From Candidatus Ratteibacteria bacterium (GTDB lineage: Bacteria > Ratteibacteria > UBA8468 > MWAK01): a stretch of DNA of 64,000 bases. The translations under genes and the position numbers were made by a program. The notes below the pieces were generated by a model that did no database searches, was not told the origin of the DNA, and saw only the letters and a program-made list of their open reading frames with translations. The stretch spans positions 5,330 through 69,329 of the forward strand of contig JBAZEZ010000009.1 of the NCBI GenBank assembly GCA_041653615.1. The letters run 5' to 3'. Position 1 is the stretch's first letter, and the number at the start of each line of letters is the position of its first letter. Of this stretch, positions 3,789 through 46,997 are shown in pieces.

Positions 3789-3862
3789 TCGGGGCGACTG
3801 GATTCGAACCAGCGACCACCTGAACCCCATTCAGGTGCGCTACCAGGCTGCGCTACGCCCCG
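3789..3862 (-). tRNA. tRNA-Pro (anticodon GGG), CCA not encoded
   Basis: Reverse complement CGGGGCGTAGCGCAGCCTGGTAGCGCACCTGAATGGGGTTCAGGTGGTCGCTGGTTCGAATCCAGTCGCCCCGA: full cloverleaf, anticodon loop ATGGGGT, T-loop TTCGAAT. Confidence 0.96.
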
Positions 3863-4798: not shown

Positions 4799-6331
4799 AT
4801 GAAAAAAACGCTATTTTTAGGGATTGACGTCGGTACGACCGGCGTAAAAGCCTTGCTGGTCGATGAAACCGGAAAGGTCGTCGACCAGGCAACCAAAGAA
4901 TATCCGCTCCTGGCGCCGAAACCCTTGTGGCTGGAACAAAACCCGGCGGACTGGTGGAGCGCCGCGGTCAAAGCGCTGCGGCTGATTTCCGGACGGCAAA
5001 AGCTCAAGGGAAACCTCCTGGCAATTGGCCTGACCGGCCAGATGCACGGCTCGGTCTTCCTTGACCGGGAAGGCAAAGTCATACGACCGGCAATCCTCTG
5101 GTGCGACCAGCGGACCGGCGCGGAAGTAAAAGAGATTGAAAAACTGGTTGGCAAAAAGAGAATAAACCAAATTACCGGCAACCCGGTCTTTACCGGATTT
5201 ACCGCGCCCAAAATATTGTGGCTGCGCAATAACGAACCCGCCGCCTACCGAAAGATTGCCAAAATTCTCCTGCCCAAAGACTACCTTCGCTATAAATTAA
5301 CCGGAGATTTTGCCTCGGAGGTAACCGACAATTCCGGAACCAGTCTCTTTGACGTTGAAACTAGGAAATGGTCTCCGGAAATCTTGAAAAAACTTCAAAT
5401 CAAGCCTGACTGGTTGGCGCCGGTCTTCGAATCTCCGGATATCACCGGAAAAATTACCGCGGAAGCAGCCAACCTCACCGGACTTCCGGAAGGTCTGCCG
5501 GTGGCTGCCGGCGCGGGCGACCAGGCGGCCAGCGGATGCGGAAACGGGGCTGTCTCCCGGGGCATAGTTTCAACCACCCTGGGAACTTCCGGTGTAGTCT
5601 TCGCTTTTTCCAACAAGGTCTTAAAAGATTCCGCCGGCCGGATTCATACGATGTGCCACGCGGTTCCCGGAACGTGGCACCTGATGGCCGTAAGTCTCTC
5701 CTCCGGCGGTTCCCTGCGCTGGTTCCGGGATAGTTTCTGCCGGGAAGAAATATCCGAGGCAAAAAATAAACATCAAGACCCTTACGAAATAATGACCGCG
5801 TCGGCCGCAAAAATTACCGCCGGCTCCGAAGGTCTGCTCTTCCTGCCCTACTTGACCGGCGAGCGCACACCTCACCCCAACCCCCTGGCCCGGGCCGTCT
5901 TCTTCGGCGCCACCGGCCAACACACCAAACCCCACTTCATTCGGGCAATCCTGGAGGGTGTAACTTTTAGTCTGCGGAACGGAATGGAAATCATGAAAGA
6001 AATGGGATTGCCGATTCGCCAGGTGCGCGTTTCCGGCGGCGGAGCCCGCTCTGACCTCTGGTGCCAAATAATGGCCGACATCTTCGGGAAAAAACTGGTG
6101 CGGACCGAAAATCCGGACACTACCGCGTTGGGTGCGGCCATCCTGGCCGCGGCCGGCGTTAAATATTTTAAGGACGTACCGAAAGCCTGCAGCCGGATGG
6201 TACGGACAAAAGAGGTCTTCCATCCGAATAAAAAAGAAAAATTAATTTATAATCAGGCATACGAAATTTTCCGAAAACTCTACCCGGCGGTCGCCCCTTT
6301 TTTTGACTCGGTGGCCAAAATTAGGTTATAA
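4799..6331 (+). CDS. xylB: Xylulokinase (FGGY family)
   Basis: [55 protein letters not shown]. Confidence 0.9.
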
Positions 6332-6666: not shown

Positions 6667-7985
6667 AAACACTTTACGCTCGGGCTCTGGGAGTTCTGGT
6701 AGTCGCCGGCCTCTGTTTCTGGGCATTCTGGCCGCCTCAGCAAAAGGTGAAACTGGGCCTTGACCTGCGAGGCGGTATGCAGTTAGTCCTACAGGTTCAG
6801 CCGGCCGCGGAATTAGCCAATGTTTCCATTGCCGAACTGACCGACCGCACGATGGAAGTCATCCGGAACCGGGTGGACTCTCTGGGTATCACCGAACCGC
6901 TCCTGCAGAAAGTCGGACAAGACCGAATCATGGTCCAGATGCCCGGAATTGAAAACCCGGAAAGAGCTCTGGAAATTTTAGGAAAAACCGCCTTCCTTGA
7001 ATTCAAACTGGTAGAAGACAATCCGGACCTTTTGAAAGCGGCAATGGAAGGCAAAGTCCCGGATGGTTACCAGCTGATTTACGAATACGAAAAAGACGCC
7101 AAGGGAGTTTCCCTGCCCGGTACGCCGTATCTGGTACACGCGCAGCCAAATCTGACCGGCCAGGACTTGAGTAACGCCCGCCTTAGTTACAGCTCGGGCG
7201 CGATGCCGGTCGTTGACATGGAACTGAATTCCGAAGGCGCCAAAAAATTTGCCGAAGTAACCGGCGCAAACATAGGCAGGCGGCTGGCCATCGTGTTGGA
7301 CGGAATCGTCCAATCCGCGCCGGTCATCAAAGACAGGATTCCTTCGGGAAGGGCTCAAATCTCCGGAAAGTTCACCACCGCGGAAGCCAATGATTTAGCC
7401 CTGGTGTTACAAGCCGGCGCCCTGCCGGCCAAAATTGAAGTCATTGACCGGACTGTAGTCGGTCCGAGTTTGGGAAAAGATTCCATTAATAACGGTATTA
7501 AAGCATGCCTGTTGGGCGCAATTCTGGTAGTAGCTTTTATGATTGTCTATTATACCGCCGGCGGCCTGGTGGCAAACTTCGCCCTGGCCCTTAATATTCT
7601 CATCCTTTTGGGAGTTCTGTCTTACTTCCGATCCACCCTGACCCTGCCCGGCATCGCCGGTATCGCCCTGACCATCGGGATGGCGGTAGACGCCAACGTC
7701 CTTATCTTTGAACGTATCCGGGAAGAACTGCGCGCCGGCAAAACCATCCGGGCCGCCCTGGACCGTGGTTACGAACGGGCGATGGTGGCCATTATCGATT
7801 CCAACCTTACCACGGTAATTGCGGCCATCTCCCTCTTCATCTTCGGCCGCGGTTCAGTGAAAGGTTTCGGCCTGACCCTGACTATCGGCATTCTGGCAAA
7901 TATCTTCACCGCGGTGCTGGTAACACGATTAATTTACGATTTTGCGTTAAACAAATTCCCGATTAAGAAACTGAGGATTGGATAA
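6663..7985 (+). CDS. secD: Protein translocase subunit SecD
   Basis: [50 protein letters not shown]. The ATG overlaps the hisI stop (ATGA); the ORF-track start at 6573 is too long. Confidence 0.95.
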
Positions 7986-9852: not shown

Positions 9853-10251
9853 TTGAGTATCGTGATTAAAACCATAGGGAATAAAAAGTACGCCTATCAT
9901 GCCTATCGCACCGGCAGTAAGGTAGTGCACCGGTATCTTGGAAGCGTTTCCGACAAGAACGTGGCGGCAAAAATCAAGGTACTGAAAACGGAGAAGCGGA
10001 TACCGAGTCAATTCCACCCTTTATTCTGGGACACGAATCCCGATAAAATAAACATCCGTAAAAACGCAAGGTACATCGTTGAGCGTGTCCTGGAAATCGG
10101 CGGCCTTGAGGCTTTCCAATGGATACAAAAACTCTACCCGACAAGACTGATTACCGAAACGTGCGACACGAGCAGAAAAATATCGGAAAAATCGAAAATA
10201 TTCTGGAAAATCTGGACTGGAGACCGCGATGCATTCCGAATGTTTCCCTAA
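9853..10251 (+). CDS. Putative antitoxin: DUF6922-like C-terminal domain with an N-terminal basic beta-sheet domain
   Basis: LFWDTNPDKI...YIVERVLEIGGLEAFQWIQKLY resembles DUF6922; directly upstream of and overlapping an AbiEii-like gene; TTG start after aggag. Confidence 0.65.
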   Translation: MSIVIKTIGNKKYAYHAYRTGSKVVHRYLGSVSDKNVAAKIKVLKTEKRIPSQFHPLFWDTNPDKINIRKNARYIVERVLEIGGLEAFQWIQKLYPTRLITETCDTSRKISEKSKIFWKIWTGDRDAFRMFP

Positions 10252-10885
10252 GGAAGGATTATTGGTTTTAACCCGGTTGAAACACATCGTTCGCCCGCAT
10301 CACTTCCTCCTGGCCGGCGGTACCGCAGCGGCGATTCAAATCGGGCACAGGATATCTGAAGACCTTGATTTTTTCACAAACCAACCCTTCGCAACCGAAG
10401 AAATTTTTCGCGAACTTCAGCGCCGGAAACTCGCTCCTTTGCTTTTACAGGAAGAAAAACACACGCTGACCGTAATTATCAAACAAACTAAGGTATCCCT
10501 GTTTTATTATCCCTACCCGTTTATTGAGAAGTATCTTGAATGGAAAGGCATCGCGGTTTCACAAATTACGGATATTGCCGCTATGAAAATTATCGCCATA
10601 AATCAAAGGGGAGCAAAAAGAGATTTCGTTGACCTGTATTTTATGCTCCAAACGGTCCCGTTTTGGAAAATCTCCGAAAACATGGTGAAGCGGTTTGGCG
10701 CAAACCGGGTCAATCCCGTGCATATCGGTAAATCACTGGTTTACTTTCACGAAGCGGACTCCGACCCGGAACCCCGGTATTGCAAGGGAAAAGAAACCGA
10801 TTGGCAAATTATCAAAGCATTTTTTGCCAATCATGTTCCGCAAATGGTTCTCGCCCTTCAAAACGCAACAGAGGTAAGAACTTGA
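10229..10885 (+). CDS. Nucleotidyltransferase of the AbiEii/AbiGii toxin family
   Basis: FLLAGGTAAAIQIGHRISEDLDFF, DIAAMKIIAINQRGAKRDFVDLY. Confidence 0.85.
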   Translation: MHSECFPKEGLLVLTRLKHIVRPHHFLLAGGTAAAIQIGHRISEDLDFFTNQPFATEEIFRELQRRKLAPLLLQEEKHTLTVIIKQTKVSLFYYPYPFIEKYLEWKGIAVSQITDIAAMKIIAINQRGAKRDFVDLYFMLQTVPFWKISENMVKRFGANRVNPVHIGKSLVYFHEADSDPEPRYCKGKETDWQIIKAFFANHVPQMVLALQNATEVRT

Positions 10886-10892
10886 CAAATCT

Positions 10893-11249
10893 TTACTTAC
10901 CCTTCTCTTCATCCGCCAAGTAATTAGCCATCTTCCAAAGCATCTTCTTGAAATTATCCCCTTTATCCCTGACCAGACTTTCCAGCCGACGGGTAAAAAG
11001 ATCCTGATTGCTCTTCAGATAGGCAACCGGTTCTTTCGGCGGATAAAAAAGGCCCTGGACGGGCACCCCCAGAGCATCGGCGATTCTCTTCATCGTCTCC
11101 AGGCTTGCTTTCTTGGTTCCCCGCTCCACGTGGCTTAAAAAACTGGGGCTTATTTTTGCCTTAAAAGCCACCTTCTCCTGGGTTACTCCAATCTTTTCCC
11201 TGATTTCCCTGATACGTTTGCCCAATATGCGGTAGATGTTTTTTTCCAT
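10893..11249 (-). CDS. XRE/Cro-C1 helix-turn-helix regulator
   Basis: LGKRIREIREKIGVTQEKVAFKAKISPSFLSHVERG. Confidence 0.9.
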   Translation of the reverse strand: MEKNIYRILGKRIREIREKIGVTQEKVAFKAKISPSFLSHVERGTKKASLETMKRIADALGVPVQGLFYPPKEPVAYLKSNQDLFTRRLESLVRDKGDNFKKMLWKMANYLADEEKGK

Positions 11250-11311
11250 TAGGGAATATTATCGCCTATTATTCCTTTATTCTTAAATAGTCCATAGGAA
11301 ATATAAATAAT

Positions 11312-11340
11312 TTGACTTATGGATATAGTTGTGATAATAT
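11312..11340 (+). promoter_or_regulatory. Candidate sigma70 promoter for the lipoprotein cluster
   Basis: TTGACT-N17-TAATAT in the AT-rich divergent intergenic region. Confidence 0.55.
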
Positions 11341-11395
11341 TCATAAATAAACGTTTCCCAGGATCTGTCAAAATTTTTCTGTAAAAGGGAGGAGG

Positions 11396-11923
11396 ATGGA
11401 AAAGATAAAAAGATTGGTTTGGTTAGGCATAGCTATCGGTGTAATAGGCGTCTTGGCAGGTTGCGCCACCGGCCCTATGGTAGGTAAAGCCAACGTTCCT
11501 GCTCCGGAAAAGATTGAGACCCTTCAAATGTCCCCGTTATCTCTCGAAGTTTTGGACGAAACCAAGCAGGAAAAGAACCAGACGTTCATTCAGTCATTAG
11601 AGAATGATTTAAAACTGGAACTCTCCAACAACAGAATCCAGATGGATACAGAAGCGGACAAAACATTAAAGGTTTCCGTTAAGAGCGTCCATCAGACCGG
11701 GTACGCAAAAGAGTTCATAACCGGTCCTTTCCACGGACCCTCTTACCTTAAACTCAGCGTTACTTTAACCGATAAAACCGGAACTTCTCTGGCCGAATTC
11801 CCGGTGGCGCCGTTTTACGGCAACACCAAAGCTATATCCAACTTGTTAAAATCTCCGGGAAAAATTACCAAAAAACTGGCTCAGGAGATCGTGAGTAGTC
11901 TAATATCGTTGAAGAAGCGTTAA
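11396..11923 (+). CDS. Putative lipoprotein (DUF4410-like)
   Basis: Signal peptide with lipobox LAGC; SD ggagga. Confidence 0.65.
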   Translation: MEKIKRLVWLGIAIGVIGVLAGCATGPMVGKANVPAPEKIETLQMSPLSLEVLDETKQEKNQTFIQSLENDLKLELSNNRIQMDTEADKTLKVSVKSVHQTGYAKEFITGPFHGPSYLKLSVTLTDKTGTSLAEFPVAPFYGNTKAISNLLKSPGKITKKLAQEIVSSLISLKKR

Positions 11924-11944
11924 TAAAACACGAGGAGAATAAAG

Positions 11945-12514
11945 ATGGGGGAATTAGGAGCAAACGCAAAAGTTTTAATGTTGTTAACATTGGGGTCTTT
12001 ATTGCTCGCAGGCTGCGTAACCTTTGGATCGGAAAGCGATACGAATAGTCCAACATCTGAGCAAAAAGTCTTAAGCGGAGCGCAGACATGCAGTGCGGTC
12101 TTTGAAGAATTGATTCCCGAACACAAACCTGACTTCCAAACATTTAAAGAATCTTATGAAAAATCGTGGTCGGTAACTGTGGGGGTGCTTAAAACACTTG
12201 AAAATCCAATTACTTCAGCAGATAAGGAAAATGGCGTTATCGTAACCGATTACCTGGAAAAACCGAAAGGCATGTTCAAAGGGCCTTGGAGAGATAAATA
12301 CTACGTAACAGTCAGCAAAACAGACGCTTCAACAACCCAAATAAAAATCAAACGAACGGTTGAAGAATTGGAGGCGCTCGAGAGAGTGCAGGGAAGTCGT
12401 CTTGTCGGTAAAGTCTGGCGGGAAAAGACCGGTGGCGTGGAATGGATGAAAAAACAGTCAAATGGCGCTTATGAAAAATACATCCTTGGTCTCATAGGAA
12501 AAAACTTGAAATGA
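11945..12514 (+). CDS. Putative lipoprotein (alpha/beta BamC/DUF3568-like fold suspected)
   Basis: Lipobox LLAGC; WSVTVGVLK...ITSADKENGVIVTDY pattern. Confidence 0.6.
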   Translation: MGELGANAKVLMLLTLGSLLLAGCVTFGSESDTNSPTSEQKVLSGAQTCSAVFEELIPEHKPDFQTFKESYEKSWSVTVGVLKTLENPITSADKENGVIVTDYLEKPKGMFKGPWRDKYYVTVSKTDASTTQIKIKRTVEELEALERVQGSRLVGKVWREKTGGVEWMKKQSNGAYEKYILGLIGKNLK

Positions 12515-12563
12515 AATAAGAAAACGGAAGACTCCAATTAACGATAGGTAACGGAGGTGTAAA

Positions 12564-12962
12564 ATGGCGCAAAAGGTTACCAACGTCACAACGAAACTGT
12601 CTGCAGAAGACGTAATCGTTAGATCGGTCCAGTTTTTTACCAACGAGAAATGGAGAACGCAAACTCAAAGTTCAAGAGCGGTGACGTTTAGGACCAATCT
12701 GCCAGTGCCGCGAGTAATTACCGGTTTTCTTCTTTTTATCGGTGGTATTTTTTTATCTTTTACGATAGTGCTGCTAATAATCGGAATTCCCATGGTTATT
12801 GCCGGATTTTTAATACTTTTCTCTGCTGGAGTACGCTTGCTCGGTTCACAAGACCTGGTGGTAACAGCCACGCAGTCAGGAAACGGTTCTGAAGTTATAA
12901 TTACGCATGCATATCAAGCCGCGCGTTCCGTAAATCAATTTGTTGAAGCTCTTCCTCAGTAA
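12564..12962 (+). CDS. Hypothetical membrane protein (two TM helices)
   Basis: Central hydrophobic hairpin ITGFLLFIGG...GFLILFSAG; SD ggagg. Confidence 0.65.
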   Translation: MAQKVTNVTTKLSAEDVIVRSVQFFTNEKWRTQTQSSRAVTFRTNLPVPRVITGFLLFIGGIFLSFTIVLLIIGIPMVIAGFLILFSAGVRLLGSQDLVVTATQSGNGSEVIITHAYQAARSVNQFVEALPQ

Positions 12963-12978
12963 CCTTTTATTAAAAGTT

Positions 12979-13242
12979 ATGATCGATGTATCCGGAAAAC
13001 CGGAACAAGAATGGATAGAGGAATTAAAACATAGGGAAAGCGACCGAAATTACACAACCGCGCTTATTCTATCGGTTTTGTTCGGCGCCTTTGGCGCGGA
13101 CCGTTTCTATTTGGGATATACCGGACACGGTTATTGGAAACTTGTTACACTTGGCGGTTTTGGCATATGGTGGTTAATTGATATATTTCTAATCGCTTCC
13201 GGTAAATTGCTGGATGCGGATGGGTACTTAATAAAAAAATAA
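12979..13242 (+). CDS. TM2-domain membrane protein
   Basis: ALILSVLFGAFGADRFYLGYTGHGYWKLVTLGGFGIWWLID. Confidence 0.85.
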   Translation: MIDVSGKPEQEWIEELKHRESDRNYTTALILSVLFGAFGADRFYLGYTGHGYWKLVTLGGFGIWWLIDIFLIASGKLLDADGYLIKK

Positions 13243-13299
13243 ACTCCGAATAATGAATGTATCCCGTAGCACTTAAAAACAACTTTTAGAGGAAAAAAC

Positions 13300-14343
13300 A
13301 TGATTAGAATTAATATGAAGTTTTTGTTAATGGGGCTTATTGTGTTGTTTGTTTATAATGTACAGGTGAGTCTTGTTTCTTCATCGGGGGCTCAAAATAT
13401 TGTTTCAATTAAACAAGATGAGCCAACAGTTCAAAAAGTCAGGATACTTATTGACCAGATAAGAGTAATTTCTACGAAAAGTGACGATTTGGAAGCTATA
13501 GGATGGGGCGTAATGACGCAGATGGAGAAAATTGGAAAAATTGGAAATCCTGCTTTACCCCCAATAATAGAAACACTCAACGATGCCAAGGAAAGCTGGA
13601 AGGTCAGATTTTTTATGGCCGTAATCCTAGGAGAAGTTATTCCGGATAAAATGACTGTTCCATCTTTGGTCAGGGTTGTGTCCAATAGAAAAGAACCTAC
13701 ACCACTTCGAACAGAATGTATCCAAGCGATGAGTTACATTGGCGATATCAGCGTAGTGACAACTCTTATCTCTACCCTTCGGGAATCAAATATTAACATA
13801 AAAATCACGGCAATGAATACCTTGGGAAACTTGAAGGATAGCAGGAGTGTTCCTTACCTGATTACTCAATTAGATGATCCCGACTGGAATATCCAAATGG
13901 TGGCTTCGAGATCGCTTGGGCGCATCGGAGACTCACGGGCAATCAGCCCCCTAATCAAAAAAATCAAGGGGAATAAACTACCCAAAGACAATTCAAGAAT
14001 AATGCAAACCGTCACTATTGACGCGTTATCTAACTTCAACACCCCTGAGGTCGAACAATATTTCATATCCATTCTTGAAGAAAATGAAACTGAAGACAAT
14101 GTTAGGATGGCGACAATTGATGGTTTGGGCAGAATGAAGAGCGAAAAGTCTATAGATTTACTCTCGAAATTATTGCTCAGCAAGAAGGAGATTTTTAGAA
14201 AGCATGCAGCTGCAGCACTTGCTGAAATTGGTAATAAGAAAGCACTCAAATCAATTCAGCAGTCTATAGAAAGCACGGACAGTGAATATGTAAAGAATTC
14301 ATTGGAACATTCAGCCAAAAAACTTTCCGAAAGCGGGAAATAG
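13300..14343 (+). CDS. Exported HEAT/PBS-lyase repeat protein
   Basis: N-terminal signal/TM, then about 8 HEAT units (e.g. AMNTLGNLKDSRSVPYLITQLDD, ASRSLGRIGDSRAISPLI). Confidence 0.85.
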   Translation: MIRINMKFLLMGLIVLFVYNVQVSLVSSSGAQNIVSIKQDEPTVQKVRILIDQIRVISTKSDDLEAIGWGVMTQMEKIGKIGNPALPPIIETLNDAKESWKVRFFMAVILGEVIPDKMTVPSLVRVVSNRKEPTPLRTECIQAMSYIGDISVVTTLISTLRESNINIKITAMNTLGNLKDSRSVPYLITQLDDPDWNIQMVASRSLGRIGDSRAISPLIKKIKGNKLPKDNSRIMQTVTIDALSNFNTPEVEQYFISILEENETEDNVRMATIDGLGRMKSEKSIDLLSKLLLSKKEIFRKHAAAALAEIGNKKALKSIQQSIESTDSEYVKNSLEHSAKKLSESGK

Positions 14344-14372
14344 TAAGTAATCATTTGTCGAAGGAGAAGGTT

Positions 14373-17300
14373 ATGAATATTATGATTAAGAAATATCTCC
14401 TTACTATATTGTCGATACCTGTTCTGTCGATTCTTCTGTCTATCCAATACTGCAATGCGTACGTTTCCTGGGCCTCTACTAATCAAAACCAATATCCTGG
14501 GGCCGCAGATGCTGTTTTCAAAGATCTCGGACCCAATGCTTGGGGTATTCCCGTATCTTTTCAGGTAGGTCACGCCGCTATTTTTTACCAGTATGGCACG
14601 GATGGTTCTCGACAGGTAATTCAAGCAAATGGATATAGTGCACCCAGCAGTATAGCATCATGGAGTGATTTCCTGGGAGGCTTGGAATATTGGGGAGCCT
14701 ATTCACAGTCGCGGATTGATGCTTCCGCAAGAGAAGAGATTCTATACATTGCCACTACCTATTGTCTTAATATTCCTTATGCGTTGAATCGTGGACACTA
14801 TAAGGATCCACCGAACAGCTTAAGGTGCGACGGTCTTGTTGAATATTGCTATGAACGGGCTTTTGGTGAAGAGAATTCACCAGCATATACCCAGCCAAAT
14901 CAAGGGATAGTGCCCAATGATCAGTATGATGGAAACGCTCTTCGGCTGTGGTCATTTGCTTTGGATTCAGATAGTTCCGAACATTACATGACTCCTGAAA
15001 TAGTGATGGAATGGATTAACAACCAATCTACTGTAGATGATCCAACCACGGATGATCATGATTGGGGCAGTGGAAATTCAAGACAGGGCAAGAACTCTAT
15101 TAACCATAATCCGGCATTAACGAGTGGAACTGTTAGTCCGTCTTCAGGATATGCCAATTCGACGAGTTTTACGTATTCGGTAAGTTACTCTGATGCCGAC
15201 TTGGATGTGCCAGTCACAGCTTACGTCTATATTGACGGCAACCCACACACAATGACATTTGTCAGCGGTAAAGCATACAATGGGATATATCAATATATAA
15301 CGACTTTATCAAGTGGGTCGCACAGCTACTACTTTTATTTCATTGATAATCAGAATAAATCGGGTTCGTGTAGATTGCCTTCCTCTGGTAATTACTCTGG
15401 GCCGATTATTACCATCCCACCAGCTATCTCCGTATCCCCGTCAGACGGATTGACCTCTTCGGGCAACCAAGGTGGACCGTTCAGCCCCTCAAGCAAACAG
15501 TACTCTGTTTCTAACAGCGGCGGAGGAACCTTAAACTGGACAGCTTCGGCAAACCAGAACTGGGTAACTGTCTCACCAACAAGTGGCACCAACTCCGGGA
15601 CAGCGACAGTTTCAATCAACAGTAACGCCAACAGCCTCTCCGGTGGTGCTACCTACATCGCCACCGTGACCTTTGGCGGAAATGGTGGTAGCACTGCCCG
15701 GCAAGTCAGTCTGACTGTGCAGAATCAGACCGCTATAATCAACATGACTATTGGGCCTCTCCCGGTAGATTTTGGTACCGTTTCGGTCGGCCAATCAGTC
15801 CAGCAAAACCTTACGATTACGAACGGTTCTAATTCAACCGGTGCATTAATAGGTTCCGTTGGCACACCACCTGTTCCTTTTTCCCTTGTGAGCGATAATG
15901 CTTTTAATCTTGCGCCAGGACAATCCAAAATATTCACTTTTCGGTTCTCACCAACAACAAACGATACATTTAACAATAGTTTTGCCGTTACAAGTAATGC
16001 CACCAACCAGGTGAGCCCAGTGAACCTTTCTATGTGCGGTGTTGGCTTCGGCGGACCCAGCTATGGCATGACAATAACTTCGTGCGCAATCAGTAACACC
16101 AACCCAAATACCGGACAAGCGGTAACCCTGACCGGCATGGGTGGTCAGGTACACGGAGTCACAAGTGGGGACTTAATCAAAGTGGTCGTTGGCTTCCGCG
16201 ATGGTTCAGGAAACTGGAGGGGCGGCGAACCGGTTTTGGTTTCGAGCACAGTTCCGGGGCAGAGTTTTCAACCGTGGTCGTACAGCAGCGGTGTTTCCGT
16301 CAACGCACCTTCGAGCTCCGGCACATACTACGTTTGGGTACGTTCAGTGCCAACAGTTACTAATGCCACGGCCATCCAGGATTTTAAAAATGCTGCCCCA
16401 ACCAGTGCTGATCAACAACGGGACGATAAGTGGAGCACACCGCTGACAGTCAACGGCAATGACCCGCTTTTCGGAAATCTACTTTTGTACAAACAGGATG
16501 GAACCCAAATTCTTGGAAACGTCCCTATAGATAATCCTGTTAGGGCTAACGGAACTTATACTGTGGGCAGCGACGGAAGCAACCAAGCATTAAGCCGATG
16601 GGAAATAATTTCGGGAAGTGATGTAGTGTTTACCGATACCTGTCTCTCGGGCGATTTGACTTCTTGCTGGCTACCGGGCAATGCCCTGAACCCTGGAACT
16701 GCTTACACTTTAAAAGTCAGAGCTAAAAACTCCAACAGTATTTGGTCGGAATGGGTTTCCCTGGATTTCAACACGATTCCACAAATACAATCTAATGATT
16801 CAAATGGTGACGGTGTTCCGGATGACCAGACACCAACTAATGCCGATTTAATATCGTATGGTTTCGTTCCTTATAATCCTGGCATTCCTGATTCCGGCCT
16901 TCCCGATACTGCTTTGATCGTAAAGTTCAACAACGAGCCCATCTTGGTTGAGTCCACCGGCAACGATACAATTTCTTATTTTGCCGGCATCACACCTTCG
17001 GAGGTGCCACCGTCAGATTACAGTAATCCTTATGGTGTTTTTACTACCCGGATAGAAGTTCCGGTGGGAACATCCATAACACTCACATACACGTTCCCCG
17101 CAACATTGCCTTCCGGTACTTTATGGTACAAATATGATGAATCTGCCACGGCCGGAAACAAATGGGTTGAATATCCAGATGCATTCCTTGGTCCGGGTTC
17201 AAATCAATTTACGATACAGGTTACCGATGGAGGTGAAGGTGATGCTGACGGAGTTGCCAATGGTATCATCATAGACCCATCCGGACCTATTTCGCCCCCA

Positions 17301-36611: not shown

Positions 36612-36616
36612 TTGTT

Positions 36617-37027
36617 GGGGGGCGATAAGCCGGGTTCTGTTTAGATAGCCATTTCTCTTGGCCCTGTCTTACGACAGGGCTCAAGCAGCCTACCCGGGGT
36701 ATTTGCGGAGCGGGCGTCCATCCCCCTGCTCGGCCTTGCTCCAGAGAGGTGTTTGCCAAACGGCAATCTTACGATTGCCGCCGGTGAGCTCTTACCTCAC
36801 CTTTGCACCCTTACTCGTCTACGCAAAACTATGGCGGGCTTTGCCCGCAGTAGCCTTGGCGAAAACGGGCGGTTTATTTTCTGTGGCACTTTCCGTTTCC
36901 TTGCGGAACCTGGGTGTTACCCAGTCCCGGCCCGACCGGAGCCCGGACTTTCCTCAGTTACCGACTTTGTCCGCCGAAGCCAGCTTCGGCATAGGCGGAT
37001 GCAGTAACTGCAGCTATCTCGCCCCCC
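36617..37027 (-). ncRNA. rnpB: RNase P RNA (type A) with expanded P3 and P12
   Basis: Minus strand has GAGGAAAGTCCGGGCT, AGTGCCACAGAAAA and ACAGAACCCGGCTTA; P1 GGGGGGCGA/TCGCCCCCC. Confidence 0.95.
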
Positions 37028-43498: not shown

Positions 43499-43704
43499 AA
43501 AACCGCATTGAGAATAAAATCAGGCGGCTTAGATTCGAACACGGGGAGATGACGCAGGAAGAACTGGCCGGCAAGACCGGCGTCACGCGCCAGACAATCA
43601 TCGCCCTGGAAGCCCAAAAATATTATCCGTCTCTGGAACTCGCCTTCCGGATTGCGCATGTTTTCGGCGTCCGGCTGGAAGATGTCTTTCAATACGAAGA
43701 ATAA
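43495..43704 (+). CDS. XRE helix-turn-helix regulator
   Basis: [13 protein letters not shown]...[21 protein letters not shown]...[11 protein letters not shown]; ATGA overlap with the upstream gene. Confidence 0.93.
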
Positions 43705-43726
43705 CGGTATTCAATTGGGGGTGTCT

Positions 43727-44272
43727 ATGAAAAAGTTACTGCTTCTTATCGGCACGTTGGCGCTGTCGTATCCACTGTTTGCGGCGCCGGTTAATAAAGC
43801 TATGACAGTTCCGAAAACTACGATTGCGCGGGTGGGAACATATGACTCACGCGCCGTAGCGGCGGCATACGTCGGCACAACGGCTTTCAACAAAGACATG
43901 AAAGAACTGACGACGAAGTATGAAAAGGCGAAAAACGAAGGAAACAAAAAGCGAATGGCGGAATTGGAGGCGCAGGGAAAAGCGCAACAGGTGCTGCTGC
44001 ACAAACAGGGCTTCAGTACGGCTCCGGTGGATAACATCCTTGAACACATCAAGGGCAAGTTACCTGAAATCGCCAGAAAGTCCGGCGTTGAAGTAATCGT
44101 GTCAAAATGGGATAAAAAGACGCTTGCCAAATACAAATCGGCGGAGTTCGTGGACGTTACCATGGCGCTGGTGGATGCTCTACAACCAAACGACCGCCAG
44201 CGTAAATCTGCCATCGAGATTCAGAAGCATAAGCCAATTTCGTTAAGGCAGGCGGGAAATATAAATGATTGA
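43727..44272 (+). CDS. Exported hypothetical protein (helical, possibly OmpH/Skp-like)
   Basis: Signal peptide MKKLLLLIGTLALSYPLFA; RVGTYDSRAVAAAY followed by coiled coil. Confidence 0.6.
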   Translation: MKKLLLLIGTLALSYPLFAAPVNKAMTVPKTTIARVGTYDSRAVAAAYVGTTAFNKDMKELTTKYEKAKNEGNKKRMAELEAQGKAQQVLLHKQGFSTAPVDNILEHIKGKLPEIARKSGVEVIVSKWDKKTLAKYKSAEFVDVTMALVDALQPNDRQRKSAIEIQKHKPISLRQAGNIND

Positions 44273-44334
44273 GTTGGATAAATTTTTAAGCGCTTAGAAA
44301 AAGGCTGAACGGAAAAGTTATTTGTATTTTTTCA

Positions 44335-44525
44335 AACGAGGGTGTTTGGTTAAGTAAAATTTCACGTAGTGTCAGGAACAAAACAAGCAGAACGGAGAGG
44401 TGAGTATCCGGGGCTCACCCGAACCACGGGTGAGAACACGGAGAGGCTCGCCTCGGAGTTACGTAGTTTTGTCTGACACGCAGGGTGTTTTACAAACCAA
44501 ACATCCGAGTTATTCAGTGGCACGG
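44335..44525. repeat. Structured ~190-bp repeat, copy 1 (3' of the MFS gene)
   Basis: Colinear with 45750-45990; closing stem gtgtcag..acaaaac/gttttgtctgacac. Confidence 0.8.
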
Positions 44526-45703
44526 AGGGGAATTTTGATTTTCAGGACGGAGAAAAAGTTGACGACCGCAATAAGCGCGCCGAGCACAAAAACATACTGA
44601 TAGCCAAGTTTAAACCAGATTATCCCGCTCAACAAAGCAACGGAAATGGAAAAAAAGTGGTCAATCGTCACACCCATATTCAGGGTCGGCGCAACGTGTT
44701 CCGGGTCCACCGCGATTTTTTTCAAATAAGTTGCCCGCGCCATGCTGACCGAGATGAGCATACCGTCCAGAATAAAACACGCAGCCGCCACCAAAAAAGC
44801 GGCGTTACCGGGAAAAAGTATTTTAGAAAACCCGTAGCCCAGGCAGACAAAAACCAGAACTATCGCTTCCGCCGCCAGAACCATCTTTTCACCCAGCCGG
44901 TCTATCGCACGCCCTAAAATAGGTTGAAAAACGATACCGATAACCCCGGTGATGGTCAGGAGCGTTGCCAGCATCCGGGTCGGCGCTTTAAAAATGGTGA
45001 CCAGGACCCAAGGAGCAAAGGTAAGAAATATCTGTTTCCTGGTTCCGTACAGGATATTCAACCAATAAAAAAGCCGGTATTCCTTATGCAGTTTAAGCCG
45101 GAGTTTGGGATGCTGCGGCTTGTCCGGTTTCATAAAAAAGAGCAAGCCGGCCGCGCCGAAAGAAACACAGGCCGCGATTAAAAAAGCGCTGGCGAATTTA
45201 AAATGAAAATAACTGAATCCCAGAAAAACCGTAAAACTGCCCAAGATTGCGGCAAAATTACCGACACCGCTGAACTGACCCAGCCGTTTACCGACCGCTC
45301 CTTCCCTCGCCAATTCCATCCCGATACTAAAGTTCAAAGGAAGAAAGATATGCTGTCCCAGGCTGAAAATAAAAAGCCAGGCAAGCATAAAGGAGAGCTG
45401 CGGGGAAAAAGAACCGATAAGGATAAGACCTAAACCCTGAAGCAGGAGGGCCAGGACCGCCAGGCGCCGGCCGCACATAAAAAAGAGGAAGGCGGAAACA
45501 AATATCACCAGAAAACCGGGCAGTTCCCGCGGCAACTCCAGAATCGACCTCTGCAAGCTGCTGATTCCAAAAGTGTCGTTCAGGAAATTGTTGAAGACGG
45601 AATTGAAAACCGCCTGGCTGAAACCGATAAGCGCAATCGCCCCCAGAAAAAGACGCACGTCCGGCGATATATTCAAAAAACGTTGTTTGAATTTTTTAAT
45701 CAT
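44510..45703 (-). CDS. Major facilitator superfamily transporter
   Basis: About 12 TM segments; GRRLA and GRAIDRLGEK loop motifs; start at ATG 45703. Confidence 0.85.
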   Translation of the reverse strand: MIKKFKQRFLNISPDVRLFLGAIALIGFSQAVFNSVFNNFLNDTFGISSLQRSILELPRELPGFLVIFVSAFLFFMCGRRLAVLALLLQGLGLILIGSFSPQLSFMLAWLFIFSLGQHIFLPLNFSIGMELAREGAVGKRLGQFSGVGNFAAILGSFTVFLGFSYFHFKFASAFLIAACVSFGAAGLLFFMKPDKPQHPKLRLKLHKEYRLFYWLNILYGTRKQIFLTFAPWVLVTIFKAPTRMLATLLTITGVIGIVFQPILGRAIDRLGEKMVLAAEAIVLVFVCLGYGFSKILFPGNAAFLVAAACFILDGMLISVSMARATYLKKIAVDPEHVAPTLNMGVTIDHFFSISVALLSGIIWFKLGYQYVFVLGALIAVVNFFSVLKIKIPLRATE

Positions 45704-45749
45704 TGAAATCAGCGATCCTAAAATAGTCGCGCTACATTTTTTGACTTGC

Positions 45750-45990
45750 AACGAGGGTGTCCGGTGAACGGCATTTCGCAGAGTTGTTTGTTTTTACCCC
45801 AAATGAGGATTGTTTCTTTTGCAACACTTCGCGGAGTGACAGTTACAAAACAAGCAATACGGAGGCTTGAGTAGCCGGGGCTCGCCTTGTAATATAGGCA
45901 AGAACACGGAGAGGCTCAAGCCGGAGTTGCGTAGTTTTGTCTGACACGTAACGTGTGGAGCAAAAGAAAAATCCGAGTTACTCAATGGAG
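45750..45990. repeat. Structured repeat, copy 2 (3' of galT, 5' of MFS)
   Basis: Shares aacgagggtgt, acaaaacaagca, ccggggctc, agaacacggagaggctc, cgtagttttgtctgacacg and atccgagtta with copy 1. Confidence 0.8.
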
Positions 45991-46997
45991 CGCAAATACT
46001 CCGCCGCGTCCTCCGGCGGCGTGGGATTAATGTAGAAACCGGTTCCCCACTCAAAACCGGCGATTCCGGTAACCCGGGGAATAATCTCCAGGTGCCAGTG
46101 ATAATCTTTGTCTATCGTCTGCCAGTATCCGGACCGGGGTACCCGGTTCGGCGCAGTGTGGATAAGATAGTTGTAGGGCGGTTTATCCAGCGCCTGGTTA
46201 ATCCGGTAAAGTGTCTTTTTTAGAGTTGCGGCCAGGTCCTTTCGTTCCGCCTCGGTCATCTGGTCGAAATCCGGATGGTGCCTTTTGGGCACAATCCAGG
46301 TTTCAAAAGGAAAACAAGCGGCGAACGGAGAGAGAACCATGAAATCGCGACTTTCCTGAATAAGCCGCTTTCCGGAATCAAGCTCCTGCTCAATAATATC
46401 ACAAAAAACGCAGCGCTCTTTCAATTGATAATGCTGCGCCGCTCCGAGTAATTCCTCCCGGACCCTTTTGGGAGTTATCGGTGTGGCAATAATCTGAGAA
46501 TGACTGTGCTCCAGCGAGGCGCCGGCGCCTTCCCCGCAGTTCTTAAAAATAAGAACGTAACGAAAACGAGGGTCCTTCTTCAAATCGAGGGAACGCATCT
46601 GATAAGATAGAATCACTTCCGCAATCTCGCTTTCCGAAAGTTCCGCAATGTCGGTAATATGCCGGGTGGTCTCCACGATTACTTCGTGCGCGCCAACGCC
46701 GTTCATCTGGTCAAACATTCCGATGCCTTTGCGGCTCAAGTCGCCTTCAATGGCCAGGGCCGGATACTTGTTCGGAATCACCCTCAACCACCAGCCGGGC
46801 TCATTTTCCTTGGTACCGGCCTTACGGAAAGAAATAATTTCCGGCGGTGTTTTGGATTCATTTCCCTCGCAAAAAGGACAAAACCCTCCCTTTGCCTCGC
46901 TTCTTTTGTCAAAAACAAAATCCTGGGGGCGGCGGGCCCGCTCGGTGGAAATTATCACCCAGCGGTTAAAAATCGGGTCTTTTCGTAATTGAGGCAT
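45978..46997 (-). CDS. galT: Galactose-1-phosphate uridylyltransferase family (GalT/ADP-glucose phosphorylase-like)
   Basis: MPQLRKDP, CPFCEGNE, VIPNKYPAL, GASLEHSHSQI, CVFCDII, HWHLEIIPR, GFEWGTG. Confidence 0.9.
   Translation of the reverse strand: MPQLRKDPIFNRWVIISTERARRPQDFVFDKRSEAKGGFCPFCEGNESKTPPEIISFRKAGTKENEPGWWLRVIPNKYPALAIEGDLSRKGIGMFDQMNGVGAHEVIVETTRHITDIAELSESEIAEVILSYQMRSLDLKKDPRFRYVLIFKNCGEGAGASLEHSHSQIIATPITPKRVREELLGAAQHYQLKERCVFCDIIEQELDSGKRLIQESRDFMVLSPFAACFPFETWIVPKRHHPDFDQMTEAERKDLAATLKKTLYRINQALDKPPYNYLIHTAPNRVPRSGYWQTIDKDYHWHLEIIPRVTGIAGFEWGTGFYINPTPPEDAAEYLRSIE

Follow-up and report, generated by a model that had tools for sequence, protein, structure and literature searches.

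A 64-kb stretch of contig JBAZEZ010000009.1 (64,000 nucleotides, the window) carries two copies, A and B, of a long hairpin-forming element on either side of an MFS transporter gene, with copy B occupying the spacer between this gene and a galT-like gene. We consider it probable that A and B are independent members of a lineage-specific, non-autonomous, structure-dependent family of interspersed repeats in Candidatus Omnitrophota that spreads via its plus-sense single strand. The family is multi-copy and strictly intergenic, and its members share a fold, a strand preference and a context; they also turn over, and have arrived repeatedly at the same spacers, leaving behind the first ~33 nt of the prior occupant. 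It is best read as a previously undescribed element family that in its behaviour most resembles ERIC and REPIN. A sequence-only reading of the window had noticed the two copies and proposed either a new structured RNA or a non-autonomous element; the finding is real and more general than that two-copy observation.

Copies A and B lie in direct orientation 1.47 kb apart, as had been noticed, and align by blastn at E=8e-29. Their cores are about 73% identical (73–78% given for the pair), against a family mean of 72%, and a covariance model (CM) built from the family finds no other match in the window. The positions of both copies and of the neighbouring features are collected in Table 1. For each copy the minimum free energy (MFE) and centroid structures are one long, imperfect, unbranched hairpin, with an MFE of -87 kcal/mol for copy A (z=-9.25 against dinucleotide shuffles; complement -65.9) and -73.8 kcal/mol for copy B (z=-5.93; complement -70.1). 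The family consensus is likewise a single unbranched rod, and the multibranch fold first suggested is wrong. The long stem reported at the same time (now the inner stem, GTGTCAGGAACAAAAC / GTTTTGTCTGACAC in copy A and GTGACAGTTACAAAAC / GTTTTGTCTGACAC in copy B) was placed exactly, but it is not the closing stem, as it lies within some 30 more base pairs (44338-44368 with 44480-44509). The compensatory changes described in the apical hairpin are present (CTCACCC/GGGTGAG in copy A versus CTCGCCT/AGGCAAG in copy B, the second with one C.A mismatch). By their outer stems, GGGTGTTTGGTTAAG / CAAACCAAACATCC in copy A and GGATTGTTTCTTTTGC / GCAAAAGAAAAATCC in copy B, the two belong to different subfamilies. 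Copy A is closest to loci L035 (84%) and L022/L011 (81%), copy B to L021 (87%), L053 (86%) and L012 (85%).

Both hairpins abut the stop codons of minus-strand genes, as the sequence-only reading had recognized. The MFS stop TAA (44510-44512) touches the right-hand end of copy A, and the native galT stop TAA (45978-45980) touches the 3' foot of copy B. The extent of 240 bp originally given to copy B came from a separate 34-nt relic together with the T-rich leader. The relic (45750-45783) is the start of the 5' arm of a member of another subfamily; it lies 20 nt upstream of copy B and has no complementarity to its 3' arm. With cmscan against Rfam 15 over the whole window, no family reached the gathering threshold at either copy, in agreement with the initial impression, and at E<=10 the region 44200-46100 gave only 16-bit chance matches to ctRNA_p42d and Vault.

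Table 1. Positions of the two copies, their leaders, the relic and other features of the window
Feature	Position	Strand	Evidence or remark
Copy A, 175-nt hairpin core (AACGAGGG...ATCCGAG)	44335..44509	+	CM R1, 181.9 bits, E=1.7e-43
Copy A leader, T-rich with a final CA (GTTATTTGTATTTTTTCA)	44317..44334	+	family-wide position matrix
Copy B, 176-nt hairpin core (AATGAGGA...AATCCGAG)	45802..45977	+	CM R1, 179.6 bits, E=6.4e-43
Copy B leader, about 18 nt (GTTGTTTGTTTTTACCCCA)	45783..45801	+	T-rich-then-CA pattern of the family
Relic upstream of copy B, ~34 nt (AACGAGGGTGTCCGGTGAACGGCATTTCGC...)	45750..45783	+	nhmmer match to 5'-arm profile positions 1-35
MFS transporter gene, 397 aa	44510..45703	-	Pfam MFS_1; lies between copies A and B
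galT-like gene (HIT-family galactose-1-phosphate uridylyltransferase)	45978..46997	-	Pfam GalP_UDP_transf / GalP_UDP_tr_C
Hypothetical gene	43652..44272	+	open reading frame list; ends 62 nt left of copy A and runs in the direction of the element
Bacterial RNase P RNA class A	36613-37027	-	255 bits; long insertions in P3 and P12
tRNA	3789-3862	-	Rfam match

To collect further members, an 18-mer from the 3' arm was compared with one genome per species. It matched 18 stretches, 16 of them in five Omnitrophota metagenome-assembled genomes (MAGs), with at least eight copies in JBDRQI and six in JAPLMK; in one MAG the copies are dispersed over at least six contigs. Because a bias on the 3' arm was to be avoided, the second search, against metagenomes, used a degenerate pattern taken from the 5' arm and apex only, and it returned 34 more loci. 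Application of nhmmer to all loci gave 48 distinct full-length copies, every one from Candidatus Omnitrophota. Pairwise identity has a mean of 72% across the family, with a best pair at 92.7% (L036/L038, from one metagenome); within a MAG the mean is 73%. No genome holds a set of near-identical copies (maximum 88%), and there is thus no sign of recent bursts. Scans of viral contigs with the two longest shared blocks gave 0 matches and one chance match inside a coding sequence. Omnitrophota are uncultured and, to our knowledge, nothing is known of their repeats and non-coding RNAs; in the literature on Omnitrophota repeats or RNA motifs we found nothing specific to this element.

The unit is about 190 nt long and consists of a T-rich leader of ~15 nt ending in CA, followed by a hairpin of ~175 nt. 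In the leader matrix T stands at 0.5-0.73 at position -15 and at positions -13 to -6, and positions -2 and -1 are C and A, respectively. Conservation ends ~15-20 nt before the hairpin on the left and ~4 nt after CCGAG on the right, the ends of the unit being A[AG]CGAGG and CCGAG(CGCT), respectively. Since leaders differ between subfamilies, we take the leader to belong to the unit. In the family consensus, nine helices are parted by conserved internal loops, and model R1 contains 0 branch points. The foot is formed by tandem G.A/A.G pairs (CGAGG/CCGAG), replaced in a few copies by Watson-Crick pairs; a second internal loop is purine-rich. The central block comprises an invariant ACAAAAC/GUUUUGU helix, the loop AA/GUAG and a GCA/UGC helix, and other conserved loops are UGAGUA, CCGKGG and GAACACGG. 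We considered whether the G.A foot might be a 4-bp CGAG target duplication and rejected this, as variant copies keep complementarity, not identity (CGAAG/CTGAG in L012; Watson-Crick in L022, L023b, L058 and L039).

Covariation was tested on the 41 copies of standard length, for which controls were obtained by sliding the partners 1-3 columns and by 500 shuffles. Standard pairing was found in 95.6% of cells, compared to 28-44% in the slid controls, and cells with double changes numbered 247, compared to 9-37. None of the 500 shuffles reached any of the measures. Compensatory changes occur at 26 of 48 base pairs, and outer-stem columns 13-15/175-177 and 24-25/166-167 each show three to four pair types. 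Some apparently compensatory differences between close pairs may represent a single recombination, since the swap of a central segment changes both strands at once; true compensation is still needed to account for the range of pair types across the family. The homologues and the covariation that the sequence-only reading had called for, as checks on a new structured element, were thus both found.

The two strands of the element are not equivalent. The plus strand folds better in 43 of 46 copies, by a mean of 11 kcal/mol and irrespective of the orientation of the neighbouring genes. It also carries more G.U pairs (4.3 versus 1.8 on the other strand) and scores 180 bits with the CM, versus 30-38 bits for the minus strand. 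A conserved U.G pair is present in 26 of 41 copies; on the other strand it would be C.A, and the G.A tandems would become pyrimidine mismatches. We therefore conclude that the functional form is the plus-sense single strand, as RNA or DNA. In copies A and B this sense is antisense to galT and MFS. With the better-folding strand antisense to these genes, and family members present in either orientation, the idea of a 3'-untranslated-region motif of the minus-strand genes could not be upheld.

Strand asymmetry that ignores neighbour orientation, together with invariant internal loops, covarying helices and paralogues that are deeply diverged and yet all keep the fold, would also be expected of a family of small-RNA genes. 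Such a family, of some ten independently transcribed paralogues per genome, would serve the host as a scaffold for a ribonucleoprotein or as a trans-acting regulator, and it is the main rival of the interspersed-repeat reading, if in our judgement a rather unlikely one. The pyrimidine-purine step (CA) at the junction of leader and hairpin also counts in favour of such genes. However, no -35/-10 pair is conserved, the positions upstream of -20 show no conservation, and in place of TAnnnT the leader has a T-run. A scan for sigma-70 promoters and terminators placed neither copy above shuffle expectation. No U-tract follows the hairpin as in an intrinsic terminator; the T-run precedes it on the plus strand, and on the minus strand the T-rich leader becomes an A-run after the hairpin.

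Two further candidates were tried and rejected. A CsrA sponge, suggested by GGA motifs, was discarded because conservation across the family is lacking at two of the three GGA sites. A small open reading frame (type I toxin) was set aside as no frame seems to be kept across subfamilies, judged from the alignment by eye and not by a dedicated frame analysis.

Some copies depart from the standard length. Apical insertions of 62 nt are present in L016 and L020 and of ~30 nt in L027, L031 and L042. The 62-nt insert (ACCCGGCCAGTAATTGACCC...GGCCGGGACGAGTGT.GTTCTC) is common to L016 (~1250-1320) and L020 (~7800-7870), at one apical position of copies that are not orthologous, and the orthologues of the L016 copy (L026, L062) are without it. 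This is either a smaller element that targets the apex or the outcome of central segments being exchanged between copies. L028 (4673-4749) holds a copy with an internal deletion, its 5' arm running straight into ...CTTGCGTAGTTTTGTCTGACACGCAG...; this copy sits between the start of a dihydroorotase gene and an apparent 3' end of a tRNA gene, the latter judged by eye from the T-arm-like TGGAGAGACTCGAACTCTC and not from a tRNA scan. The leader has an apparent similarity, over very short sequences, to parts of the element's interior (CAGTWAC, GTAGTTTT).

Every copy is intergenic, and copies occur in either orientation to their neighbours. The two sides of the element differ: the distance between the 3' foot and a start or stop codon is 0-8 nt in ~31 of the 36 copies with a right-hand neighbour, while spacing on the left is 12-120 nt. 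Where the right-hand neighbour is convergent, the boundary is its stop; where it is co-directional, the boundary is its ATG, which in all such cases follows CCGAG/CCGGAG by 3-7 nt. The neighbours include DnaX, Tgt, TyrS, RuvC, YebC, MnmA, RNase Y, UppS, Lgt, XerC, S8, L6 and L22, and no neighbouring protein family recurs other than as orthologues. Within the 8-kb loci around the copies, the neighbours sampled included no transposase adjoining any of the 48 copies. Two JBDRQI copies lie on the sense strand of a ribosomal-protein operon, before rplV and between rpsH and rplF, and sense-strand copies in ribosomal-protein operons stand 5-7 nt upstream of start codons. That many copies are in the sense strand of operons, with the next ATG only 5-7 nt away, argues against independently transcribed small-RNA genes. 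Neighbouring pairs of copies are direct in four of four cases (the window, L023, L026 and L020/L024), and L054 provides a fifth.

This asymmetric placement raises the question of whether the element primarily serves the host in cis, as an RNase III or other processing site, a stabilizer or a translational gate in mRNA, with its spread being secondary. We regard this as decidedly unlikely as the primary explanation, though a cis-acting role is compatible with either an interspersed repeat or a small RNA. In its favour, the short spacers appear by inspection to lack any other Shine-Dalgarno-like sequence, in which case the foot would double as stem and ribosome-binding site. At more than 60 bp, the rod has a size typical of substrates of double-strand-specific RNases, and copy B takes the place of a spacer that in a close relative holds an intrinsic terminator (below). 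On the other hand, either orientation occurs, yet only one strand has the favourable G.A and G.U pairs; the genes served are unrelated, and at the same spacers the element is missing from close relatives.

Turnover of copies is seen at the spacer between the S8 and L6 genes. It is empty in L063 and L064 (19 nt) and in L067 (27 nt), and occupied by a copy in L026, L016, L062 and L065. In L065 the subfamily that is intact in the other three remains only as its first ~33 nt; after this relic come a new leader and a complete member of another subfamily, and an older relic lies upstream. The same array of relic, leader and full copy is found at copy B of the window and at L011, L012, L015, L032, L065 and L066. 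The relics are always on the strand of the full copy, of a different subfamily and 20-31 nt upstream of it (113 nt in L032). A xerC-like gene was also used twice: a copy lies 2 nt after its stop in both L025 and L032, in opposite orientations and from different subfamilies, and synteny between the two ends at these copies. Other copies have been kept at one locus across species (L019/L017, L026/L016/L062, L043/L059 and L037/L049), with orthologous copies differing by 4-7 compensatory pairs. Retention of this kind is what small-RNA genes would show; relics, presence and absence at a site, and re-use of sites are unexpected of ordinary RNA genes. Altogether, dispersal, copy number, sharp ends, presence/absence and truncated relics broadly support the suggestion of a non-autonomous element.

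At the window's own locus, the genes trmD, gatA, galT-like and MFS follow one another on the minus strand. In L005, the closest relative, the order trmD-gatA-galT-MFS is unchanged and neither copy is present. Protein identity to L005 is 88-94% for trmD, gatA and galT (94% for galT, with the C-terminus ...EYLRSIE* common to both), and 89% for MFS. The best match of the MFS protein (89%) is annotated from a Candidatus Omnitrophota MAG. In L005 the galT-MFS spacer (5782-6000), 216 nt long and unrelated, contains several short hairpins rich in G+C as well as a canonical intrinsic terminator (AAACGCTTCAGAATGAAAGCGTTTTTTTT) that the window does not have. The L005 MFS protein has 406 aa and ends in ...PLRESQYPKIPLP, whereas the protein of the window ends in ...PLRATE, its last three codons and stop (ATE*) differing from L005. 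As the L005 protein is nine residues longer, the arrival of copy A appears to have replaced the end of the gene. The MFS gene was in place before the copies, with one member having landed after the galT stop and another at the MFS 3' end, where it would have replaced the last codons.

The sequence-only reading had proposed instead that the copies mobilized the MFS gene as a composite, and that a relative might show the galT locus with one copy and without MFS. L005, on the contrary, keeps MFS beside galT and has no copy, which refutes the composite. We see virtually no chance that A and B are the ends of a compound element that brought MFS to galT, or, as a variant, that A is a local duplicate of B, in spite of two direct copies 1.47 kb apart around a single gene and an 88% identical MFS homologue in an unrelated context (L006). 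The identity of MFS falls within the range of its neighbours, and the 73% identity of A and B is that of the family at large, with different outer-stem subfamilies. The right flanks of A and B are alike at 9 of 11 nt (TTATTCAGTGG versus TTACTCAATGG, rank 42 of 903 pairs), which was the remaining point in favour of the composite, but the similarity of their left flanks is unremarkable (rank 271 of 903). With the flanks and subfamilies as they are, copy A was also rejected as a local duplicate of B. The ribosomal-operon copies of JBDRQI have right flanks alike at 11 of 12 nt (rank 5 of 903), and short flanks may sometimes be copied along in local events. Given that MFS was inherited vertically and that A and B are unlike, we conclude that these are two separate arrivals in adjacent spacers and not the ends of a vehicle.

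Gene ends packed closely against the element, neighbouring pairs in direct orientation, a conserved structure with variable stem sequence, conserved unpaired bases and recognition by fold with a strand preference would also fit an integron-like recombination site, an analogue of attC. By this analogy the folded strand would be recognized by a tyrosine recombinase, and genes bracketed by copies, such as MFS, would be cassettes. This reading is largely refuted, and we think it exceedingly improbable. The ends show no RYYYAAC / GTTRRRY (R''/R') core sites, 175 nt exceeds the sizes of attC, and there is no array beside an integrase. Instead, the copies are spread across many contigs; the genes that flank them or lie between them are core housekeeping genes whose order is conserved, the S10/spc ribosomal operon included; and MFS was vertically inherited.

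We compared the family with other known repeats. Wilson & Sharp are said to have described ERIC (enterobacterial repetitive intergenic consensus) in 2006 as an imperfect palindrome of >100 nt forming one hairpin, intergenic and mostly transcribed, in either orientation, with tens of copies per genome and internal insertions at fixed places. Conservation at orthologous sites is known for some ERIC copies (PMC3184786). The present family is likewise a long single hairpin, intergenic only and in either orientation, with a fixed-place internal insert (here the 62-nt apical one) and some copies at orthologous sites. It differs in having no sequence similarity to ERIC, in coming from another phylum and in its length (175-190 nt versus ~127), and its stems covary between copies instead of being conserved in sequence. 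There was no match to the 127-bp enterobacterial consensus, nor a pattern of flanking TA at the ends. The resemblance to ERIC is functional only; ERIC-type elements have terminal inverted repeats, target duplications and flanking TA (PMC3184786).

REPINs are also non-autonomous hairpin units thought to move as a single strand, and their clusters form by insertion into or beside existing copies (PMC3116915), to which the arrays of relic and full copy may be compared. A further likeness is the conserved unpaired GTAG beside a stem (GCGUAG-UUUUGU). However, a REPIN consists of two short palindromic repetitive extragenic palindromic (REP) sequences, usually in hundreds of copies, and its cognate RAYT, the Y1 HUH transposase that mobilizes it, is flanked by them. 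In the present family, by contrast, the arms are not palindromes and pair along their whole length, and a genome has about ten copies. We did not find two inverted, GTAG-preceded palindromes; GTAG occurs once, in an internal loop of the 3' arm. Among the sampled neighbours there was no RAYT.

Miniature inverted-repeat transposable elements (MITEs; Correia/NEMIS, RUP, Nezha) are similarly small, non-coding and dispersed; they may lie within operons, where they supply or mask signals for expression. What defines them is target-site duplication together with terminal inverted repeats whose sequence is conserved and corresponds to that of a parent insertion sequence (IS); the present family shows neither. 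No parent IS was found, the terminal repeats are not conserved in sequence (the outer stems covary), and a test for target-site duplication was negative, the longest word shared by the left and right flanks of a copy averaging 4.95 versus 4.77 +/- 0.14 for mismatched flanks, a value reached by 9.5% of permutations. When set beside an IS200/IS605-type PATE or an omega/reRNA remnant, the family is consistent in its left flank (CA after a T-run), in having no target-site duplication and in its sharp right boundary, and inconsistent in its one long hairpin in place of two small ones, in having no match to Rfam HEARO or IS605-orfB, and in a mixed orientation relative to GC skew. Overall, the element fails each test run for a MITE, a REPIN, an ERIC, an attC site or a terminator.

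These results lead us to propose that the interspersed repeat spreads through a single-stranded intermediate of the window's plus sense, recognized by its shape and central loops. The enzyme responsible would be encoded elsewhere; candidates are a HUH/RAYT-like enzyme, an integrase-like enzyme or a reverse transcriptase. Entry would be into short spacers, with a preference for those already occupied by a copy. Once resident, the hairpin would be transcribed along with its neighbours or lie antisense to their transcripts. Effects on nearby genes are known for the ERIC, Correia and REP repeats, which are transcribed and form hairpins (PMC3184786), and by analogy the resident element probably affects mRNA processing or translation of its neighbours, since its 3' foot provides GAG/GGAG 5-7 nt before start codons.

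Several observations weigh against spread by this route. No mobilizing enzyme or autonomous partner was found among the neighbours of the copies, no excision or insertion intermediate was seen, and no copies are near-identical (88% within a MAG, 93% within a metagenome). Orientation relative to GC skew is mixed (18/30) and gives no support for a replication-strand mechanism based on lagging-strand single-stranded DNA. That pairing is kept in each resident copy also fits a host function, and the 4-7 compensatory pairs between orthologues could reflect selection in place and not selection for mobility, although there is also evidence that other members replace or convert resident copies (S8-L6).

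A more specific possibility, which we hold to be very unlikely, is a new kind of structure-recognized mobile element that homes into spacers occupied by relatives and overwrites them from about nt 34, possibly a bacterial retroelement resembling a short interspersed element (SINE). On the minus strand the T-rich leader gives each unit an A-rich tail at its end, and the relics retain only the ~33 nt nearest to this tail, as would target-primed copies truncated at the 5' end. The common right flank of 11-12 nt in neighbouring copies would have been carried over from a read-through host transcript, and the plus-sense single-stranded copy would be the folded intermediate.

A second repeat was seen in related MAGs. 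It contains an exact 21-mer, CAGGCGGGACGCCTGTCCTAC, whose other strand is REP-like (GTAG followed by a palindrome), at L016 449-469, L021 6587-6607, L032 5193-5213, L046 630-650, L063 3005-3025 and L064 3003-3023. It often lies 25-45 nt upstream of the long hairpin and also occurs within the ribosomal operon, between L6 and L18 (L063). The 21-mer is not present in the window.

For the remainder of the window, the only Rfam matches are the RNase P RNA and one tRNA (Table 1). The hypothetical gene left of copy A has no Pfam match; on L001, an identical contig, it was predicted with a length of 181 aa. From ~10000 to 16000 the G+C content is 0.41-0.44, compared to ~0.50 elsewhere, and this region is possibly an island. 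As to the MFS gene, the homologue in L006 (6001-7245) stands in another neighbourhood, next to AbiEi/AbiEii-type genes, and in L007-L010 homologues with 69% identity lie a few kb from a phage-type integrase. The MFS transporter family may move between contexts by other means. The exact MFS protein of the window is present on three contigs. One of these (L001) is a 51-kb metagenome contig identical to the window; the others, the Logan contigs L002 and L003 with the same MFS gene, end at window positions ~45843 and ~44463, inside copies B and A, at their most conserved blocks.

With contigs breaking inside copies, these repeats fragment short-read assemblies of this lineage, and the element also marks synteny breakpoints. 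The covariation is unusually clean (26 covarying pairs in 48 copies), and the invariant non-canonical loops look like a protein-recognition surface. The element is tolerated 5-7 nt before the starts of ribosomal-protein genes, where most mobile DNA cannot sit. If it is mobile, a hairpin element without target-site duplication or sequence-conserved terminal repeats, which replaces its predecessors, would point to an undescribed mobilizing enzyme. If instead it is a host RNA, it would represent a new class of large structured RNA.

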